Source of the DNA: Nanobdellota archaeon
GTDB lineage: Archaea > Nanobdellota > Nanobdellia > Pacearchaeales > GW2011-AR1
NCBI GenBank assembly: GCA_030648155.1
Contig: JAUSIK010000002.1
Location: forward strand, 17,205-81,204
Length of the DNA stretch: 64,000 bases
Direction of reading: 5' to 3'
The notes beneath the pieces are model-generated. The model saw only the letters and a program-made list of their open reading frames with translations. It did not search any database and was not told the DNA's origin. The position numbers were made by a program, and so were the translations under genes. This document shows positions 3,001 through 54,229 of this stretch, piece by piece (the stretch's first letter is position 1; each line of letters starts with the position of its first letter).

Positions 3001-4348
3001 TAGAATAATTCAAGCTTCTGCGGGCGAGACATGCGATGATTCTAACAATATCGATGGAGATGGTTGCAATGCTTTGTGTAAATTAGAAATTCTAGGACAA
3101 AAACCAACATTAAATGTTATTTCACCAATAAGTGTAGAATATAAAAATGTTCCAGTAGTTGTTGAATTTCTAGCATCAAATTCAGATGAATGTTGGATTT
3201 TATTAGATGGTATTAGGCAGGATAAGTCGTGCAATATTAAAGAAATTTTAATAATAAAGCCATCAGGATTTAATATTGTTGAAAATCACGATCTTGAAGT
3301 TTTCGCTAAAAATGCATTTGGTGAAATAGAACAAACAGTATTTTTCAGCATAATTTCTACCAGGCTAACTTCATTAAAATATAACGAGTTTAAAGGCATA
3401 GGAGAAACAACAAATCTCGATAACTTTAATGATTTGGAATTAGAATTAATAGATTTAATTTTAGATGATGGAATAAACGCAAAAATAAGATTCAATGAAA
3501 AAGTGAATCTAGTTTTAGGAGCAGTTAATAACCAATTGGATTTAGATGCAATGGTTGATATATCAGATAAAAAAATTAGTGTTGCAACATTACCAAACGC
3601 AAACCTAAATAAAAAAGCAACTTTAACATTTAGGAATATTAATTATAATGATCCTAAAGTTTTGAAAGATGGTATCGAATGTCCTGCAAGTGATTGCATT
3701 AAAGAAAGTTATACTTCTAATACCTTAGTAGTAAACGTAAACGGATTCTCGATATATACAATTGTTGAAGGTCAGCCAAGCGGTGTAACAAATCCTCCTC
3801 CAAGTGATTCTGGAAATCCTGGAAGTGGGGATACAGGAGATGGTGGTGGATCAGGTGGAGACACAACCCAGGTTAAAAAAGTAGAACCTAAAGAAGAAAA
3901 TAAAAATCCAATAATAGAGGTTATTAATGCAGAAGGAGAAGAAATAAATGTAATTACAATTATCTCATCTGAATCATCTTCCTCTTTAGAAATAGAAGAC
4001 GGAAAAAGGATAATTTTAGAAATAGAAGAAACTTCACAGCAATATATAATTGACTTTACAATTAATGAAGGTAAAATCAATCTCAATATAGTAGGAGAAA
4101 ACAGAAATTATAACATTCTTCCTGAAGAAATAACCCCTGTTAGAATTGGGGATAAAGAATTATATGTGGGTATAAAAACTTCTGATGTGAACAATGCAGT
4201 CTTAGTGATAGGATCTAACAGCCAGCTGGTTGAGGAAAGTATTCAGACAATTAGGAGTAGTCTTATAAAATATTTATTGGTATTTATAATAATAGTTTTA
4301 ATACTCTCAATAATATTTTTAATCTTTAAGTATACCAAGAAAAGCTAA
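2..4348 (+). CDS. Giant cysteine-rich cell-surface protein (5' end cut by window edge): M64-like zincin motif, Ca-binding-type and DUF4215-type Cys repeats, C-terminal TM anchor
   Basis: The frame of ORF 125..4348 stays open back to nt 2 (QGSGLVGHELGHAFGYLSDEYDF...). This gives HELGH (23-37) plus DEY (56-64), as in the peptidase M64 pattern HExGHxxxxLxDEY. Also present: thrombospondin type-3-like DxDxDxxxDxxDNC acidic repeats; two DCNDxDxxxxPxxxExCNGxDxxCD (MopE-type) motifs; three ~150-aa Cys modules (QCNDNNPCTxDxCxAGSC...); about 8 CG(N/D)xxxxxxExCDDGN units (Myxococcus Cys-rich repeat/DUF4215 type). A Gly/Pro/Ser linker precedes the hydrophobic tail YLLVFIIIVLILSIIFLIF-KYTKKS. Confidence 0.8.
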   Translation, partial: QGSGLVGHELGHAFGYLSDEYDFPSWCDADDRKQNTNPTGTMKSPNVYHASEATNNPISCEQNSDWNYLVGTCFTSNRIYFNNCPNPYTKISCYEGNLFCYETSTLKTYLWRPADKTIMAKALLDGMSMVDITAVCRNFESLYFGQRLGVCNNICVDGCPSGYKCADGGGLIGVCKDSFGVACPDADADKICDVEDNCKNIANQNQFDFDRDNIGDLCDNDLDGDTYKKDSSPVDCNDNDPSIYPGNGCSSCVPQPEVCNGLDEDCDNIADDGGNLNCAGTNSICSAGSCVQCVTSSQCNDNNPCTEDLCSAGSCAFPNNNANSCSDGLFCNGVESCSAGSCVRTSLNLDDGKTCTSDTCDDVNDIIVHTINNALCQNGLFCDGAEICEPSSPSSNSFSGCRAGTSIICNDGVQCTADECFEGADGGTDNNGQCIAYTNTCTGCTLDSQCNDNNPCTNDACNAGSCVNTINNANTCNDNKFCTINDRCSEGSCTGDARNAEDGIACTQDSCDETLGLVHTPINSRCDNGLYCDGSEICNDVQGCIVGTPVVCNDGQSCTTDTCNEIFNRCLSRSTDLDGDTYGICSGSSFDCNDQDVNTHPNAVELCNGINDNCDGFIDEGCPICGNTIKEGTEQCDDGNNLDGDGCSSICETELFCVLTDAYWSNLNVIEGELLSITIEGSNCNGKVIDLNIYEKDIPLDEDDNANINPTSITFVNGIANGFWTAEWQCDGDFGGKCNWGVPEYYFTATVRNEGTTIVSSLLNVNELSPTCGNGIPQGTEQCDDGNSIITDSCTNVCADAKCGDNIVYEGVEACDGNLVTCITSQGYQGIQSCKTDCSAFNSCIAVESCGDGRINGNEFCDDGALNGQPTYCNSQCKGITSPLCGNIITEIGETCDDGNTINSDACTNSCINAVCGDSITRTGVEECDVGTNGNSQCTSSCKLTFCGDGIVQSPNGIGVNEICEGSSTACSVNGYNGISSCNGLCTAYSSCVPTERCGDRIIQASAGETCDDSNNIDGDGCNALCKLEILGQKPTLNVISPISVEYKNVPVVVEFLASNSDECWILLDGIRQDKSCNIKEILIIKPSGFNIVENHDLEVFAKNAFGEIEQTVFFSIISTRLTSLKYNEFKGIGETTNLDNFNDLELELIDLILDDGINAKIRFNEKVNLVLGAVNNQLDLDAMVDISDKKISVATLPNANLNKKATLTFRNINYNDPKVLKDGIECPASDCIKESYTSNTLVVNVNGFSIYTIVEGQPSGVTNPPPSDSGNPGSGDTGDGGGSGGDTTQVKKVEPKEENKNPIIEVINAEGEEINVITIISSESSSSLEIEDGKRIILEIEETSQQYIIDFTINEGKINLNIVGENRNYNILPEEITPVRIGDKELYVGIKTSDVNNAVLVIGSNSQLVEESIQTIRSSLIKYLLVFIIIVLILSIIFLIFKYTKKS

Positions 4349-8791: not shown

Positions 8792-9589
8792 ATGACAAAT
8801 TTAGAGGACTTCATAAAGTTTACAAAGGAAGAGGAAGAAATCTCAAGACTAGTTGAAACTAAGCAAAAAGATTCAAGAGCAAGTGAAAAAGACAAGGCAG
8901 ACAAAGAATTAAGAAAAAGAGCATATGAAACATTGAAAGATATTGGCGAGCCAGGAATTGATTTTAGGACCGAAACAGCAGATACTATTAGTCCAAACTT
9001 TGTTCAAAAAGGAATACAAATTAGAACAACTCTAAATAGTGAAGATTCAGGACGAGTGTTTAAAGATAATACTGAAGACATTCTTAATACTATAAATCAA
9101 AACTCATTAGAAGAAATAGCTCTTGCAGAACCTATCTCTAAAAAAGGCGAAAAAGGGTATGATGAAGTATTATCGTTATATCAAGATTATCTTGGGAGAA
9201 AGAAATTAGTCGAAAGATATGAAAAAGGGCAAGTTAATGATCCAAGAGAATTACAGATAATTAGATCAGGTGGTGCCAAAAAGGCTGAAAATGAAATTAG
9301 AGAAAAACTAAAGAACAAAGGATATAGTAAAGATGCTCAGAATATGGCTGCAGATCTAGCAGAACTAGCAGCTAGAGAAGGATATATCAACGATAGATAT
9401 GTAAAAGAAGGAGCTGGGGAAATAGTTAAGGAAGCTGAAAAGAAATTAAGGGATTATGAAACCAGCAAAGATAAAAAAGTGATAGACTATGTTAAAGCCT
9501 CTGTAAAGAATCTAGCAAAAGGATCAACTGAAGAGTTTGAAACTGCAAGAGGATTAATCTATCAAGTAGAAACTAAAAAAGCCGCTTAA
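8792..9589 (+). CDS. Hypothetical protein, Lys/Glu-rich helical
   Basis: 265-aa ORF with its own TATA box at the canonical distance. No family recognised. Confidence 0.6.
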   Translation: MTNLEDFIKFTKEEEEISRLVETKQKDSRASEKDKADKELRKRAYETLKDIGEPGIDFRTETADTISPNFVQKGIQIRTTLNSEDSGRVFKDNTEDILNTINQNSLEEIALAEPISKKGEKGYDEVLSLYQDYLGRKKLVERYEKGQVNDPRELQIIRSGGAKKAENEIREKLKNKGYSKDAQNMAADLAELAAREGYINDRYVKEGAGEIVKEAEKKLRDYETSKDKKVIDYVKASVKNLAKGSTEEFETARGLIYQVETKKAA

Positions 9590-9593
9590 TTTT

Positions 9594-10460
9594 TTATTTT
9601 TTCATTTCCAAAATTTGATCAATAATCTTTGTCATTTCCATCAAAAACTTTTCAGCAATGTCCTGCCATTTGTCAATATCTTCACCCTTAATTTCATGTA
9701 TTTCTCTATGGGTAATTCCTTTATGCAGGACATAAATATCTCTAAGTAGCCTAACATTTTCAATCTTAGTCATTCCTTTATCAACAAATTCTATCTTTAA
9801 CATTTTAGGAACATGTTCAGGGCTTGGAGGCAATGCACCCGCAGTAATTAACGCAGCCTGTGCAGCCTCAATCATTGTCCAATAAACTCCCTCGATAGAG
9901 CTTAAAATAGCAAGTTTGCTTCTTCCTAAATGTATTGGCGCTCTTTGCAATGCATTATAAACTGCTTCAGGAGTAGACCTTATTCTTCCTTGTATCAATA
10001 AAGATTTTAATGGGTTGAAAAATCCTCCGTAATCAATCAGTACCTCTCCATATCTTAATATATTTAGTACAACAGGATCGCCCTGCATTAAGTCCTGCCA
10101 CCACGTTGTTAACTTGATTGTATTAATATGCAATTCCCTAGGGTATCTTTGTGATGACATTAATTTTCCTAATTCTTCTCGGTACCACGCGATTAATTCC
10201 AAATCCCAATTAACAGCAGCATCGTCAATAATAAAAATAACATCAACATCAGATCCAGGTTTAGAATCATTTGTCGCTTGTGATCCAAACAAAACAGAAG
10301 CTTTAATCAGCCTGTCAAATTTTTTCTGCGCCTTTTCAGCAAAATCCATGGCTATTTCTTTATTATCAATAAGTTTTCTCTCTTGGAGAGGAAGAACTTT
10401 TACATCTTGTTCTTTTTTCTCTTCTCTCTTTTCAACTTTCTTCACCTTCTTCTTTGCCAT
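9594..10460 (-). CDS. Fused minimal nucleotidyltransferase + HEPN-like protein
   Basis: The N-terminal half carries GSQATN-x6-SDVDVIFIIDD (MNT GS...DxD motif). The C-terminal helical half carries RDIYVLH (R-x5-H, compatible with HEPN Rx4-6H). TATA gatttaaatag lies upstream on the minus strand. Confidence 0.6.
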   Translation of the reverse strand: MAKKKVKKVEKREEKKEQDVKVLPLQERKLIDNKEIAMDFAEKAQKKFDRLIKASVLFGSQATNDSKPGSDVDVIFIIDDAAVNWDLELIAWYREELGKLMSSQRYPRELHINTIKLTTWWQDLMQGDPVVLNILRYGEVLIDYGGFFNPLKSLLIQGRIRSTPEAVYNALQRAPIHLGRSKLAILSSIEGVYWTMIEAAQAALITAGALPPSPEHVPKMLKIEFVDKGMTKIENVRLLRDIYVLHKGITHREIHEIKGEDIDKWQDIAEKFLMEMTKIIDQILEMKK

Positions 10461-10539
10461 AATATATATTAAAGTATATATGTCTATTTAAATCTTTTAA
10501 TGCCTTTCCCCAATATCTTTTTTGCTTTATTTAATAATT

Positions 10540-12402
10540 TTATTCAATAGGTGCCCCAGATGTCCTGCTTCTTCCAGCCATCTGTCCGCCTAATTCTAAT
10601 GGTAAATTGGAAAAACCAGCTCCGTAAAGGGAATGATGGAAGTCGGGATTAATATTACCATGCCCAGAGAAATAACCAGGGGTAATTGCACTCGCTTGAT
10701 TCCAATATGGGCCACCAGCGCCATAGGCCGAAGCTCCAAAACTTGATAACGTCTCACGAACAGGAGTTTTCTGATTCAGTCCACTCTGACTTAGCCAATC
10801 TCCAGTTTCAGCAATTTTTTTAACTTTTTTATTATATTGATGAATTAAATCAAGCATTTGTTTAGTTGGTACGTTTCCCATTCCCATAGGAAGTTCAGTA
10901 TGGCTAAGTCCAAAATTATCAGACAAGTGAACGTGCTTAACTAAAGGGGCTATTGTTTTAGTCTGTTCGATTATTTGCTTTTCACTATAACCTTTTCCTC
11001 TAAGCATGTTAATATGCCCCACATCCCAAGTAACTCCTATAAGTTTATTGGCCTGTTCTTCAGCACTATGTTTAGACATGCCCATTTCTTTCATCGCTTT
11101 ATCTGTAAACATTTTTCTAGATTGTTCTACAATATCCCTTAAATCTTCAGCAGTATGCAATCCATCTCCAGCTGGAGGATTTTCAATACTAATAATCGGG
11201 GCATTATTTTTATATTCCTTAAATGCTGAAAATGCAGTATTCGAAAAACTGGTTGACGCTTTTTCTATTGCCCATTCTCTTAATGGTCTAATTGTCTTGG
11301 GTGTCTCTATACCACGTAAAACATTAATTCCTCTAACTACCTCATCAGAAAGAATCTCTACTTTAGAAGGATCTTTTTCTATTTGACTTATTTTGGGAGC
11401 AATTTCATCTCTAAATTTTTCCAATTTTTTGATATCCTCTTTATTTTCGTTTTTTAAAGCAGTTTTATAGGCATTATTAAACAAGTTTTGAAATCCTAAA
11501 TAAGCATCTCTTAAATAAATATCTCCTTGAGTAATATTACTTAATTCTCTATTAAGCCATTTCTTAGTTTCAGGTTCAAGTTCTTTAATAACTGGATGCT
11601 CTTCCCCTTTTGCAAATTTTTTATATATTTCAAGTAATTCACTTTTTTTATTGTCCTCTTTATCTTTAAATGTTTCTTCGATTATCCTTTCCCCTTGCCT
11701 TGCCTGAAATGTGATTTGCTGTAATTGTCTAAGCCACTGTTCTGTATTCTGCTTTTCAATTACATCTTTAGGATTAATATCTTTTTTTTCTTCTTTTTTT
11801 AAATAGTTGGTTTCTTGAGAAATAGGTTGAAATTGCCCGCTTTCTTCGTTGATTGCCCAAAAACTTTTAACTTCCCTTTTTCCCTTATCATCGATCGTAT
11901 ATGTTTCAGGCTCCATTAAACCGTTGCTTGCATGAAAAGTAACGACTAAATTCCCTTTAGGATCTAATGCATGAGCTCTTCTTACAGTGCTTATCATTTC
12001 CCGTTCAACTCTTTCCCTATCCTGTTCACTCCATCCTTGTTTACCTTGGAATCCTGTAACTTCAACTAAAGGAGCATGAAAAGTCAGATCAATTCCAGTT
12101 AACTTTTTTAACCTTTCAACCTCTTTAAATTGCTGTTTAGGAATCATATCCATTCCATGTATTCCTATTCCTCCCTGCCCTATATTAAACCCAGATACCT
12201 CAATTGTCTTAATACCCGTAGAAATTCTGTCTGAAACATTTTTCAGCATGTTAGATCCTATTGGATTAGAAGGAACGCCAAATTCGTTTGCTGAAGATCT
12301 ATAATCAAATCCCAAAAAACTCTCCCCATAGTTTTCTTTTATTCCATAAACTGGGTCAAAATCAAATCCCTTTTTATATGGGTTTTCACTTGCGTCTGCC
12401 AT
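10540..12402 (-). CDS. Xylose-isomerase-like/AP-endonuclease-2-type TIM-barrel protein with ~200-aa charged insertion (tentative)
   Basis: 620 aa. Blocks TFHAPL, VTFHAS, WDVGHINM and HVHLSDN resemble metal-ligand strands of this barrel family. They are split by a Lys/Glu-rich insert. A Gly/aromatic-rich C-terminal tail follows. Confidence 0.5.
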   Translation of the reverse strand: MADASENPYKKGFDFDPVYGIKENYGESFLGFDYRSSANEFGVPSNPIGSNMLKNVSDRISTGIKTIEVSGFNIGQGGIGIHGMDMIPKQQFKEVERLKKLTGIDLTFHAPLVEVTGFQGKQGWSEQDRERVEREMISTVRRAHALDPKGNLVVTFHASNGLMEPETYTIDDKGKREVKSFWAINEESGQFQPISQETNYLKKEEKKDINPKDVIEKQNTEQWLRQLQQITFQARQGERIIEETFKDKEDNKKSELLEIYKKFAKGEEHPVIKELEPETKKWLNRELSNITQGDIYLRDAYLGFQNLFNNAYKTALKNENKEDIKKLEKFRDEIAPKISQIEKDPSKVEILSDEVVRGINVLRGIETPKTIRPLREWAIEKASTSFSNTAFSAFKEYKNNAPIISIENPPAGDGLHTAEDLRDIVEQSRKMFTDKAMKEMGMSKHSAEEQANKLIGVTWDVGHINMLRGKGYSEKQIIEQTKTIAPLVKHVHLSDNFGLSHTELPMGMGNVPTKQMLDLIHQYNKKVKKIAETGDWLSQSGLNQKTPVRETLSSFGASAYGAGGPYWNQASAITPGYFSGHGNINPDFHHSLYGAGFSNLPLELGGQMAGRSRTSGAPIE

Positions 12403-17285: not shown

Positions 17286-17672
17286 ATGGTAGATCAATCA
17301 AATACAGGTGAAGCGTACAGCTTTTCAAATACAGGTGAAGCGTACAGCTTTTTTTATTGCAATGCTTCAAAAAGTGAAATATTAGAGGAGTTTCCAAGAG
17401 CCAGAAGATTAGCTCTAACGCCTGAAAATCTAGAATTAATACTAATAGAGGGGATTAATCCAGATATATTTGAAGATGAAAAATTAAAAAGAATAGCCTA
17501 TGAAAATTTAAAAATGGGAAGAAATTATACAATGGTGGCCGTTTTGCCAGGTGCACCAAATGAAAAAGCTTATACAGAATTAGGAGATATCTATAATTGC
17601 TTATATGCATCACCAATAGGGGATAAATTCTATAAAAACGGGGATTGGTTTCCCGCAGAAATAGTCTATTGA
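17286..17672 (+). CDS. Hypothetical small protein, paralog of 17680..17994; N-terminus contains a perfect 27-nt tandem duplication
   Basis: AYSFFYCNASKSEILEE...LELILIEGIN aligns with AYYIFDFPASKTEINER...LELTLMEGKN of the next ORF. SNTGEAYSF is encoded twice. Confidence 0.5.
   Translation: MVDQSNTGEAYSFSNTGEAYSFFYCNASKSEILEEFPRARRLALTPENLELILIEGINPDIFEDEKLKRIAYENLKMGRNYTMVAVLPGAPNEKAYTELGDIYNCLYASPIGDKFYKNGDWFPAEIVY
17299..17352 (+). repeat. Perfect tandem duplication, 2 x 27 nt
   Basis: caaatacaggtgaagcgtacagctttt occurs at 17299-17325 and again at 17326-17352. It is in frame (9 aa). Confidence 0.9.
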
Positions 17673-17679
17673 GGTAAAA

Positions 17680-17994
17680 ATGGAATCAAAAGATAAATTT
17701 GAAGTTGCATTATATGACTTATTCAAAAAATTCCAAAGAGAAATAGAAGAAATTGCATCTATAGAAAAAGTTGGAAAGGCATATTATATTTTTGATTTTC
17801 CAGCCTCTAAAACTGAAATTAACGAGAGAATTTCAATAGTTAGGAATCACCCATTACTAGGCGATAAGTTAGAGTTAACTCTTATGGAGGGTAAAAATTT
17901 AAAATACAATCCAAATATCACAAAACCCTTCGGGTTTCATGGTTTTGTGAGAACCGGGAGAAATCGACATAACAAATTCCTGCATAAAAATTAG
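17680..17994 (+). CDS. Hypothetical small protein; last ~25 codons run into a conserved non-coding-type element
   Basis: Paralogous to 17286..17672 over ~40 aa. The C-terminal TKPFGFHGFVRTGRNRHNKFLHKN is encoded by the element also found in the intergenic spacer at 52577-52667. Confidence 0.45.
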   Translation: MESKDKFEVALYDLFKKFQREIEEIASIEKVGKAYYIFDFPASKTEINERISIVRNHPLLGDKLELTLMEGKNLKYNPNITKPFGFHGFVRTGRNRHNKFLHKN

Positions 17995-18013
17995 AGATTT
18001 CTCACGAGTATTA
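17921..18013 (+). repeat. Conserved hairpin + inverted-repeat cassette, copy 1
   Basis: Hairpin aaaccc-ttc-gggttt followed by a T-run. A 36-nt block ggttttgtgagaaccgggagaaatcgacataacaaa (17941-17976) is identical to 52597-52632. A 20-nt variable AT-rich core follows, then atttctcacgagtatta (17997-18013), identical to 52651-52667. Confidence 0.8.
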
Positions 18014-18022
18014 AAAAATTTC

Positions 18023-18229
18023 ATGGCTGAAAAAGGCCTAACCGAAAGAAGATACGTTCTAGAAGCCTCTCACCCAAATGTAGATAGCAGGGAAGTAGCT
18101 GAAGAAATAAAGCTTATAGCATTTTCACTTCCATCTGAAGATAATTTTGGAAAAGGCACTTTCAATGGAGAAATATACTATGAAGAAACAGGAAAATATG
18201 TTCCTTTTAGGGAATTTAAGAGTTTTTAA
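18023..18229 (+). CDS. Hypothetical small protein (68 aa)
   Basis: ORF immediately downstream of the conserved cassette. No family recognised. Confidence 0.4.
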   Translation: MAEKGLTERRYVLEASHPNVDSREVAEEIKLIAFSLPSEDNFGKGTFNGEIYYEETGKYVPFREFKSF

Positions 18230-52010: not shown

Positions 52011-52571
52011 ATGGCATTAAGCATTTTATTATGGATTATAATAGCTTTTCTTGCAATAATTGTTATTATGTTTGTTTTCTATTATAATAGATTCGTAGTT
52101 TTAGGAAATAGAATAGATAATTCTCTAGCTCAAATTGATGTTCAATTAAAGAAAAGGGCAGATCTAGTTCCAAATTTGATAAGTTCCATAAAAGGTTACG
52201 TAAAGCATGAAAAGGGAGTTATAACTGAAGTTACAAATGCAAGGAAAGCAATGCTTTCAGGTAAAACACTTCCAGAAAGGGCAAAAGCAGGTTCAGAATT
52301 ACAAACAGCACTTAAATCAATATTCGCATTGGCAGAAAATTATCCTCAATTAAGAGCCAACGAAAACTTCCTTCAATTACAGCAGGAATTATCGGCTATC
52401 GAAGATAAAATAGCCTATACGAGGCAATTCTATAACGACTCAATTTTATCATACAACAATTCAGTTGAATCATTCCCCGGGGTTATGTTTGCAAAGATCT
52501 ATGGAAAAACAGAAAAGCCTTCATTGGAAATAGCCCCAGAAGAGCGCGCAGTTCCAAAAGTAGATTTCTAA
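52011..52571 (+). CDS. lemA: LemA family protein
   Basis: N-terminal TM helix. YYNRFVVLGNRIDNSLAQIDVQLKKRADLVPNL...AENYPQLRANENFLQLQQEL...YNNSVESFPG matches LemA throughout. Confidence 0.85.
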   Translation: MALSILLWIIIAFLAIIVIMFVFYYNRFVVLGNRIDNSLAQIDVQLKKRADLVPNLISSIKGYVKHEKGVITEVTNARKAMLSGKTLPERAKAGSELQTALKSIFALAENYPQLRANENFLQLQQELSAIEDKIAYTRQFYNDSILSYNNSVESFPGVMFAKIYGKTEKPSLEIAPEERAVPKVDF

Positions 52572-52576
52572 AATCG

Positions 52577-52667
52577 CAAAACTCTTCAGGTTTAGTGGTT
52601 TTGTGAGAACCGGGAGAAATCGACATAACAAACTCCAGCTTTAAAGCTGGATTTCTCACGAGTATTA
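52577..52667 (+). repeat. Conserved hairpin + inverted-repeat cassette, copy 2
   Basis: See 17921-18013. Here it lies entirely in the lemA-to-52710 spacer. Its variable core is the perfect palindrome ccagctttaaagctgg (52635-52650). Confidence 0.8.
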
Positions 52668-52677
52668 ATAAACCAAT

Positions 52678-52690
52678 AGGTTTAAAAGTA
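52678..52690 (+). promoter_or_regulatory. TATA-like box of 52710 lipoprotein gene
   Basis: aggtttaaaagta is centred ~26 nt upstream of ATG 52710. Confidence 0.5.
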
Positions 52691-52709
52691 AAAAACAAGC
52701 TCTATTTTA

Positions 52710-54194
52710 ATGAGAGAATCATTAAAATTAGGACTTGCAGCAATACTTGCCTTTTCTAGCTCTTGCTCTCGTCAAGAGTTGCCCCAGCCAGTACATCCTA
52801 ATCCTTTCTATGCCTCTATAGAAAGAGAAATAAGAAAGAATGACAATTGGGTGGAGGGCTTCATTACAGAAGATGCTTCTGAAACAAATAATGATGGCTT
52901 TATTTCATTAATGATTTACGGTGAGGAAGAATTAAAAAGTTTAGCTGAAATGGGAATTTCACCCCCCATTGCAAGTTATAACCCAAAATCAAAAGTACTT
53001 TTACTTCCTAATTATCCTAATGAATCAGAAAATGCAGAAGTATTAAATGCTATAGACCACGAGTTGTGGCACACACTTTACAATTCTAAAGACATCAATG
53101 GATTAACCAGTTCAAATTTTTATAAAGGCCCATCTCAAGAGGAAATTTCAAATTATGTCCAAGTAAAAACAAATAATAATGAATTCGACAAATTAAAATC
53201 CTCGATTGCTAAAGTTGAATATATTGAAGATTTTAAGGTTTTATCTGCAGAATTTGCAGATTACTATGGGCAATACGCTGAATTATTAGAAAGTTATAAT
53301 TCTCAAGTTAGTAAGAACGATAATAATTCATTGAAAGAATACCTCTCTGAAGAAGAAAAAAGGAGAATAGATGAAGAAAGAAAAACAATTCACAATAAAA
53401 TTAATCAATTTAAACCAATACTAGAAAAAATATACGATTGGAGAGAAGAAATTGTTAAGGGTAATAATAGGTCAAATTTGTCCTTATTAGAATCTACCTT
53501 AGATGATCTATCTGCACTAAAAAACAAATTTGAATCCTATACTAAAGAGTTATCCCAATTTAAAGATTTGCCCAAAATCAATAAAAATTTTAACTCCAAA
53601 GAAAATACCATTTATGAGCAAGCTGAAGAAAGACATTTTCAAGCAGAAATAAAATCATTAGAGGACAAACTTTCTAAATCCCATTCAGAAACAGAAAGGG
53701 AAATTTTAATTTCAAGAATTAGTTGGGATAAACAACATCATCAAGAAATGTCTAAAATAAAATCATTTGAAAACCAAATACCTTCTTTTCTTGACTCCAT
53801 TATTTTTAGTCATAAATACAAAGCCCAAATTGTGGCAGATGCCAATAAAAATTCTGCAAAAGATATATTATCTACAGATGAAGTAATGGCAAGAATTGTG
53901 GATTCTTTATATAGCCTTTATTTTGATGAAGTTACCCAACATAATTTTCCATTAAATAAGGAAGATTTAAATTTTCTTTCCGGATTTGAATATAAAGGCA
54001 AAAAAATATTCAAAAAAGGTATAGAGAAGTATACACTAGGTTTAGAAATGATTGGAGATGGAGTTTCTAAAGACGAGATAAAAAAACAATTAGAATATTC
54101 TACCTCATTCACTTATAAGGGTAGAACATATAACTGGCCAGAATCAAAGTTTTCAATTAAAGGAAATTTACCAATGTGGAATTTAATCAAATAA
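52710..54194 (+). CDS. Putative lipoprotein, Lys/Glu/Asn-rich, unknown function
   Basis: MRESLKLGLAAILAFSSSCS is a signal peptide with a lipobox-like Cys. A possible HELWH motif (IDHELWHTLY) is the only metalloprotease-like hint, and it is weak. Confidence 0.55.
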   Translation: MRESLKLGLAAILAFSSSCSRQELPQPVHPNPFYASIEREIRKNDNWVEGFITEDASETNNDGFISLMIYGEEELKSLAEMGISPPIASYNPKSKVLLLPNYPNESENAEVLNAIDHELWHTLYNSKDINGLTSSNFYKGPSQEEISNYVQVKTNNNEFDKLKSSIAKVEYIEDFKVLSAEFADYYGQYAELLESYNSQVSKNDNNSLKEYLSEEEKRRIDEERKTIHNKINQFKPILEKIYDWREEIVKGNNRSNLSLLESTLDDLSALKNKFESYTKELSQFKDLPKINKNFNSKENTIYEQAEERHFQAEIKSLEDKLSKSHSETEREILISRISWDKQHHQEMSKIKSFENQIPSFLDSIIFSHKYKAQIVADANKNSAKDILSTDEVMARIVDSLYSLYFDEVTQHNFPLNKEDLNFLSGFEYKGKKIFKKGIEKYTLGLEMIGDGVSKDEIKKQLEYSTSFTYKGRTYNWPESKFSIKGNLPMWNLIK

Positions 54195-54197
54195 ATT

Positions 54198-54210
54198 AAT
54201 TTTAAATACC
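54198..54210 (+). promoter_or_regulatory. TATA-like box of htpX
   Basis: aattttaaatacc is centred ~26 nt upstream of ATG 54230. Confidence 0.5.
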
Positions 54211-54229
54211 TATCCCCCTTATAATATTC

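Follow-up and report, generated by a model that had tools for sequence, protein, structure and literature searches.

The genomes of DPANN archaea are among the smallest of any cell and are usually called streamlined and poor in mobile DNA. Among the described systems closest to the repeat reported here, IS200/IS605 elements integrate into the template of the lagging strand, with an orientation bias linked to replication (PMC5027513), and REP, BIME and REPIN sequences are short palindromic units mobilised by RAYT (PMC3333891, PMC6006769). Repetitive hairpin-forming elements have been described in sponge mitochondria (PMC2800124), and a MITE-Tracker census, which is based on terminal inverted repeats (TIRs), placed a Woesearchaea genome at 105 MITEs (miniature transposable elements with inverted repeats) per Mb (PMC11602168). 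K07491 (Y1/RAYT) is reported as the only transposase KEGG orthology entry in 256 Nanobdellota proteomes (preprint 10.64898/2026.05.13.725050). The subject of this report is a hairpin-built element of about 95-130 nucleotides (nt), with sharp ends 5'-ATCAC and ...GAGTATTA(A)-3', that occurs twice in a 64,000-nt stretch (the window; contig C10:17205-81204 of genome G000) of a Nanobdellota archaeon. We read it, with a probability of roughly 0.7, as a non-autonomous, non-coding mobile DNA element of Woese-/Pacearchaeota-type DPANN that would be moved as folded single-stranded DNA (ssDNA). The family to which it belongs is real and, as a literature search found no description of it, apparently new to the record of non-autonomous, hairpin-built mobile elements in DPANN archaea.

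The assembly amounts to 1.25 Mb at 32% G+C and is 88.8% complete, and the window encodes, among other genes, a threonyl-tRNA synthetase with an archaea-specific editing domain. The genome carries 10 copies of the element on four contigs (C1, C4, C9 and C10), flanked by unrelated genes, which rules out a paralogous flanking gene as the cassette or its transposase. A covariance model, R1, was built from these 10 copies. The two copies in the window are as follows.

17917..18013, plus strand: copy 1, 97 nt, ATCAC...GAGTATTA, of a subfamily in which the inner hairpin (P3, below) is decayed; 121.8 bits with model R1; inside a protein-coding gene.

52573..52667, plus strand: copy 2, 95 nt, with an intact P3; 113.9 bits with model R1.

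A preliminary description of the window had reported a conserved cassette present twice, which holds for the window, the genome search having raised the total to 10. Reading of the window sequence located both copies where they had been placed, save for the left end: the similarity among all copies begins at ATCAC (17917 and 52573), 4 nt further left than was first drawn. The two blocks described as identical are exact in both copies. The window has the 36-nt block GGTTTTGTGAGAACCGGGAGAAATCGACATAACAAA at exactly two places (17941-17976 and 52597-52632), against 0 occurrences expected from 100 shuffles with up to 3 mismatches allowed, and the 17-nt block ATTTCTCACGAGTATTA lies at 17997-18013 and 52651-52667. 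The 5' hairpin AAACCC-TTC-GGGTTT of copy 1 becomes AAACTC-TTC-AGGTTT in copy 2, two substitutions that weaken it, as had been noted. The cores, first called completely different, do differ (palindrome CCAGCTTTAAAGCTGG in copy 2, TGCATAAAAATTAG in copy 1) and share 8/14 positions, but the core of copy 1 is a decayed version of the same hairpin and not an unrelated insert.

Copy 1 lies within a gene whose parts, together with an intact paralogue just upstream, are these.

17286..17672, plus strand: intact upstream paralogue of the split gene, 128 aa; query residues 24-134 are matched in a single frame.

17680..17916, plus strand: native 5' part of the interrupted gene (codons 1-79), whose frame now runs into the element and ends at the TAG at 17992-17994.

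18014..18229, plus strand: remainder of the gene 3' of the element, which today forms an open reading frame (ORF) of its own, 68 aa long, with its ATG at 18023.

Translation bears out the earlier observation that the copy gives ORF 17680..17994 its last 25 codons and its TAG; the ATG of ORF 18023..18229 is 9 nt past the end of the element. Excising 97 nt (17917-18013, or 17918-18014) fuses ORF 17680 and ORF 18023 in frame, an outcome that any removed length of 3n+1 would give. The fused 150-aa protein matches uninterrupted single frames of 145-163 aa in four genomes (G220, G122, G167 and G132), the match to G220 covering residues 27-146 with E = 2e-13. Residues 19-73 of the 5' part align with the local paralogue and with the full-length homologues, the 3' ORF is collinear with the C-terminal halves of the homologues in the same four genomes, and homologues and paralogue alike cross the junction without an alignment gap. 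As judged from these alignments, copy 1 is inserted into a coding sequence and split the gene in two. A protein scan of metagenome contigs gave no match to the fused protein.

Comparison of sites with and without the element extends this picture beyond the window. Between pheT and a convergent 157-aa gene, 5/10 genomes of the genus leave at most 8 nt, against 241 nt here, where the element begins 1 nt past the stop codon of pheT. On metagenome contig L245 the element immediately follows the stop codon of a gene, and the orthologous site of this genome (C4 near 147,988) is empty, with both flanks aligning. The exact 25-mer core of the element is found in thirty metagenome contigs whose genes are merely 65-80% identical to those of this genome, and near-identical 125-nt copies are present at more than 20 distinct loci of related metagenome contigs. 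Near-identical copies amid genes so diverged imply a recent burst and, in addition, spread by horizontal transfer or else strong constraint. In the source sample, Logan contigs break off within each of the two window copies, as contigs do at repeats; an exact-protein look-up for strain-level empty sites returned the source sample only, again with contigs ending inside the element. Multiple copies, patchy occurrence, a split gene, filled and empty sites and a burst of near-identical copies all favour the small mobile cassette that the preliminary description had listed among its three options, and the element is very probably a mobile or inserted selfish repeat.

Two of the loci have further features of their own. 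In the pheT/157-aa gap the other 145 nt (C4:182708-182852) may encode a small minus-strand hydrophobic peptide, and so may the 299-nt gap between the same genes in G009 (locus L102). Copy 2 starts 1 nt beyond the stop codon (52569-52571) of lemA, whose product was identified by Pfam, and the gene 3' of it has its own TTTAAAA box within the 40-nt spacer. In the relative G005 the element is absent and an htpX-like gene follows the lemA stop at 35 nt. This lemA/htpX-like spacer (window 52572-54229; loci L047-L054) is a variable spot: it holds the element and a gene for a 494-aa lipoprotein-like product in this genome, and a ~200-aa secreted protein plus a small membrane protein in G003, G004 and G006. 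Since other members of the genus carry different genes there, the locus was rejected as a clean empty site. The 494-aa gene had no match in a protein scan of the genome contigs.

A scan with model R1 finds the element in 17/201 genomes sampled from the order, all of a single taxonomic family and scattered patchily over 9 genera, with 1 to 20 or more copies per positive genome; genomes of the same genus mostly lack it. The further copies and homologues that the preliminary description proposed to look for thus exist, at genome-wide and cross-genome scale. An exact-pattern search of 40 relatives found none, because the sequence diverges and a covariance model is needed. In genomes of GTDB, full copies occur solely in metagenome-assembled genomes (MAGs) labelled Woese-/Pace-/Nanoarchaeota, and public records with the element bear the name Candidatus Woesearchaeota, Pacearchaeota or Nanoarchaeota archaeon; together with the archaea-specific editing domain, these names place the present genome in the DPANN archaea. 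Viral contigs of IMG/VR contain no copy. Matches to a 19-mer in Methanoculleus fall in coding sequence and are due to chance, and those in a Bacteroidetes MAG belong to a different repeat; neither set belongs to the family. The latter genome (Bacteroidetes bacterium Zod_Metabat.377; L165, L168, L174 and L196) has another multi-copy repeat, which starts with TCATACGGCTAT(TT/CC)A and continues with the 19-mer hairpin TCACAAAACCCTTCGGGTT, also found in the archaeal element, its remainder being unrelated. On two contigs, L121 (about 3011-3246) and L236 (3231, 3469), copies stand in same-orientation pairs 30-240 nt apart, an arrangement reminiscent of BIME-like clusters, and the paired copies of L121 belong to different subfamilies.

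The element is built of three helices, P1 at the 5' end and P2 (10-12 bp) enclosing the hairpin P3. The genome consensus reads, in its 5' half, ATCACAAAACC-[13-nt loop]-GGTTTTGTG-AGAAC-CGGGAGAAATC-[11-nt spacer] and, after this spacer, CTCCAGCT-TAAA-AGCTGGAG-ATTTCTCACG-AGTATTA(A) in its 3' half. In the window the helices are located as follows.

17919..17949, plus strand: P1 of copy 1, CACAAAACC (17919-17927) pairing with GGTTTTGTG (17941-17949).

17955..18006, plus strand: P2 of copy 1, CGGGAGAAATC (17955-17965) pairing with GATTTCTCACG (17996-18006) and enclosing the spacer and P3.

17977..17996, plus strand: decayed P3 of copy 1, TTCCTGCATAAAAATTAGAG, the TATA-like core of the preliminary description.

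52575..52605, plus strand: P1 of copy 2, CGCAAAACT (52575-52583) pairing with GGTTTTGTG (52597-52605), with two G-U pairs.

52611..52660, plus strand: P2 of copy 2, CGGGAGAAATC (52611-52621) pairing with GATTTCTCACG (52650-52660).

52633..52650, plus strand: P3 of copy 2, CTCCAGCT-TTAA-AGCTGG, the palindrome of the preliminary description.

Over the whole fold, 83% of the cells from 22 diverse copies form pairs, against 28-55% when the partners are slid, and double-sided changes number 58 cells against 22.9 in shuffles, 0/500 of which reach the observed value. P1 is paired in 89% of cells, with 4/9 pairs changed on both sides, and P3 likewise in 89%, with 7/8 pairs changed on both sides across the family and a loop that reads TAAA in 27 copies and TTTA in 2. 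For P2, at least six different complementary versions were counted by inspection, as MAFFT misaligns this helix; replacements that remain complementary in other subfamilies include CGGAAAAATC/GATTTTTACG, CCAAAGAAATC/GATTTCTTTGG, ACAGAAAACAAA/TTTGTTTTCTGT and AAAAAATC/GATTTTTT. On the strength of these comparisons, the three helices are maintained by compensatory changes. The preliminary description had proposed two mutually exclusive pairings, one of which, GAGAAATC/GATTTCTC, gains comparative support; the other, GTGAGAA/TTCTCAC, pairs no better than shuffled columns in the covariation test and is a by-product of the direct repeat GAGAA.

The helices also vary as units. The 10-copy genome alignment divides into 7 copies, including copy 2, with the P3 hairpin CTCCAGCT-TAAA-AGCTGGAG and 3, including copy 1, in which P3 is decayed by the same changes. 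The 13-nt P1 loop of copy 1 can instead form the AAACCC-TTC-GGGTTT hairpin, and among the genomic copies one carries this loop inverted while another has lost it. In G179 a precise deletion of P3 is common to three loci, and other copies share a 26-nt extra hairpin inside the P1 loop, flanked by a GTTTGT repeat; other lineages have further hairpin modules between P1 and P2. Variants with P3 lost or decayed still multiplied. Read across these variants, the family is a mosaic of hairpin modules. A hammerhead-like CTGATGA in some P1 loops was rejected by eye, as it is not conserved across the family.

A fold kept by compensatory change could also belong to an RNA, and a multi-copy structured small-RNA gene or an element internal to transcripts, with transposition secondary, would account for the changes in three helices and for a loop conserved over quite different stems. 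It would also suit the unpaired linker AGAACCGG and the 25-mer core, which stay identical where genes are only ~70% identical, and the orientation bias described below fits transcription from the G-rich strand, co-directional with replication. Set against this are the apparently random orientation of the element to neighbouring genes, the copy within coding sequence, the multiplication of subfamilies that have lost P3 or let it decay, and the similarity beginning so abruptly at ATCAC that no conserved upstream promoter is present. The two strands fold alike (mean -33.9 vs -33.0 kcal/mol; 125 vs 136 G-U pairs), with no G-U excess on either. Rfam has 0 matches in the window at the gathering score and, for five loci at E up to 1, chance-level matches only (23 bits or less); the RNA-family search suggested with the preliminary description therefore came out empty at gathering and relaxed thresholds alike. 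ARAGORN finds no tRNA or tmRNA in the window. The RNA explanation is, on balance, improbable, and its form in the preliminary description, a cis-regulatory RNA with alternative structures, is not supported, for lack of a fixed position or orientation to genes and of covariation in the alternative helix.

The ends of the element are those of no classical MITE, as it has neither terminal inverted repeats nor a target-site duplication. The 5' end ATCACAAAACC is unlike the reverse complement of the 3' end (TTAATACTCGTG); its pairing partner, in P1, lies inside the element and is not the 3' end. The longest match between flank and end averages 2.1 nt, vs 1.9 ± 0.18 in random flank pairing, and reaches at least 5 nt in only 3/67 copies. 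The 5' end is 2 nt away from the start of P1, and 7 nt separate the end of P2 from the 3' end. TTAA, which may be target or element, is ~90% conserved at one end, and the other flank is A/T-rich only. An integron attC site was rejected, since the ends do not pair together and the copies are single, dispersed, in any orientation and beside unrelated neighbours; this comparison rests on element ends and arrangement, no IntI search having been made.

Intergenic insertions occur in either orientation to genes and often adjoin stop codons. The genes neighbouring 64 copies are convergent at 21, divergent at 16, tandem antisense at 15 and tandem sense at 12, much as intergenic sites picked at random would give, and the distance to the downstream gene ranges from -90 to 676 nt. 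The downstream gene is co-oriented in 28/64 copies and the upstream gene in 33/64, as by chance. An orientation that looks random speaks against a role as promoter cassette, as 5' leader or as element of 3' untranslated regions. The first option of the preliminary description, a terminator joined to a TATA promoter flanked by operator repeats, draws on the AT-rich ATAAAAAT of copy 1, ~35 nt upstream of ATG 18023 (any promoter of ORF 18023 would lie inside the element, the ATG being so close to its end), and on several copies placed 39-63 nt upstream of a co-oriented gene. A cluster at 39-63 nt is, however, expected if elements land just outside existing promoters, the gene downstream of copy 2 has a TTTAAAA box of its own in the spacer, and the core is mostly C-TAAA-G in a covarying stem, not a TATA box, and has decayed or been precisely deleted in entire subfamilies. 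With the downstream gene oriented at random, a regulated promoter is very improbable.

Two observations on neighbouring genes stand apart from these counts. Three of the 10 genomic copies (C1:106199-106289, C4:146362-146460 and C4:297633-297731) have a tRNA gene (Leu, Ser and an intron-bearing Asn) at a distance of 45-193 nt, above the random intergenic expectation. Upstream of one copy (C4 about 9,200-11,600), GyrB (793 aa) has by reading an apparent intein-like insert, ...CFSGDTEI ... VHNSAKQ...

Orientation is far from random when measured against the replicated strand. GC skew is unusually strong on contigs C1, C4, C9 and C10 (|0.1-0.3| per 20-kb bin), keeps its sign along 165-340 kb of these four large contigs, and persists in genes of both strands taken separately and in non-ORF DNA; as an observation apart, such skew could serve to orient contigs and to locate the origin in this MAG. 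The ATCAC-to-TTAA strand of the element is the C-rich strand in 10/10 copies of this genome. The same polarity holds for 52/69 copies from 15 genomes, scored from 3-kb flanks only (p = 3e-5), and for 43/60 copies (p = 0.001) when this genome is left out. Around the copies, the skew is offset by -0.081 independently of genes (95% confidence interval -0.104 to -0.058) and the non-coding skew is -0.080, and since the immediate neighbours have no orientation bias, gene direction does not explain the polarity. Leading and lagging strands are assigned here by the usual meaning of GC skew.

A replication-linked polarity in 15 genomes could also mark an element of DNA architecture kept by the host, a structure site or binding site for a host protein (a topoisomerase, nucleoid protein or replication factor, for instance), comparable to REP/BIME, whose polarity is selected for its function. 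The mosaic build from hairpins with extra modules in some lineages, the very high conservation of the core and the absence of an associated transposase are compatible with such a role. The element is nevertheless not essential, as only 17/201 genomes are positive and close relatives do without it; copy numbers vary widely, from 1 to 20 or more, and to disrupt a gene or to multiply in bursts of identical copies is how a selfish element behaves. A host-kept architectural site is accordingly hard to credit, a shade more so than an RNA.

Movement as folded ssDNA, the reading preferred here, is inferred from the combination of no inverted ends, no duplication, conserved hairpins and polarity on the C-rich, lagging-type strand. 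A structure-specific enzyme supplied in trans would excise and reinsert the element in folded, single-stranded form at the replication fork, in the manner of IS200/IS605 and REP/REPIN. For single-strand transposition at the fork, taken by itself as the mechanism, the chances are somewhat short of even. An HUH route is plausible: Y1 transposases are common in the order (45/201 genomes), and on contigs of the burst population genuine Y1 TnpA and TnpB genes lie 0.3-5 kb from copies at four loci. A single block, in which the element adjoins the 5' half of tnpB, is found again at 98.6% identity. No further copies came to light when the seven loci were scanned with the full model. About 125 nt downstream of tnpB on L235 there is a second palindromic repeat of 92 nt, 100% identical between L235 (1637-1728) and L240 (1-92), perhaps the end of an IS, perhaps a repeat family in its own right.

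Several results weigh against movement of the element as ssDNA by such an enzyme, or limit how closely it can be traced. Pfam Y1_Tnp (PF01797) is absent from this 88.8%-complete assembly, which has no multi-copy transposase either, and across the order it is present in 4/17 element-positive vs 41/184 negative genomes, with no association. A Y1 transposase was rejected as partner on this lack of co-occurrence and on flanks of Y1 genes that are unlike the element, and the neighbouring IS200/IS605 as source because the ends of L254, the sole IS flanks examined, differ from it. The end hairpins of the element (P1 vs P2/P3) are dissimilar, whereas ends of the IS608 type resemble each other. As both strands fold about equally, the sequence does not reveal which of them is active. 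Species with empty and filled sites are 61-83% identical in flanking proteins, and DNA beside the L245 site is ~72-75% identical; at such divergence the ends of the element are known to within about 3 nt. The assignment of copies to leading or lagging strand is drawn from skew alone, and the strand bias could result from selection after insertion and not from the mechanism.

The multi-copy proteins of this genome are PIN-domain-like (by eye), wHTH-like and surface proteins, none of them a transposase. The largest such family comprises four members of ~130 aa with a PIN-domain-like N-terminus (FFDTYAF.EI), at C1:95847-96242, C4:26088-26492, C4:88801-89178 and C4:308592-308996. A further proposal, which we consider somewhat unlikely, is that the element belongs to a new modular class of hairpin elements, the archaeal counterpart of REP/REPIN, inserted as ssDNA at the fork by an enzyme other than Y1. 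Under this proposal the enzyme would perhaps be a host nuclease of replication or repair, or an unrecognised HUH-like protein, and single hairpin modules might themselves be inserted, inverted and deleted.

Against the usual picture of streamlined DPANN genomes poor in mobile DNA, the family shows that a repeat without genes can invade them, split their genes and spread between species with ~70% gene identity. Such a repeat escapes TIR-based MITE finders and Rfam, breaks short-read assemblies and creates false small ORFs, here of 104 aa and 68 aa. Its replication-linked polarity can be computed to mark the direction of replication in fragmentary MAGs and points to a single-strand insertion mechanism in archaea.

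Set beside known systems, the element shares with classical MITEs (Correia/NEMIS) its small size, its non-autonomous, intergenic and multi-copy nature and its breaking of short-read assemblies, but not the two defining features, terminal inverted repeats and target-site duplication, and TIR-based finders would therefore not report the family. The Rickettsia palindromic elements (RPEs) attributed to Ogata and co-workers in 2000 are reportedly hairpin repeats of similar length (~100-150 nt) in small host-dependent genomes, likewise with no known transposase and able to land in coding genes. They are said to be typically read through in frame as an extra peptide, whereas copy 1 brings a stop and splits its gene; to our knowledge, replication-linked polarity is not a described feature of RPEs. 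REP, BIME and REPIN units are, like the element, short, extragenic, palindromic, multi-copy and lineage-specific, and form mosaics with variable linkers in which structure is conserved above sequence. The element is 3-4 times longer than a REP, lacks its GTAG/GGAG head, is not arranged in inverted pairs and resides in an archaeal host whose genome has no RAYT-like gene (no PF01797 match). In comparison with IS200/IS605 (models IS608 and ISDra2) and the gene-free elements derived from them (PATEs), no cognate TnpA with matching ends was found for it, Y1_Tnp does not co-occur with it, and beside its ATCAC end the flank is A/T-rich, with no strictly conserved target tetranucleotide. It resembles these elements in having subterminal hairpins and neither inverted ends nor duplication, in a 3' end that lies ~10 nt past the foot of a hairpin, and in an orientation bias tied to replication.

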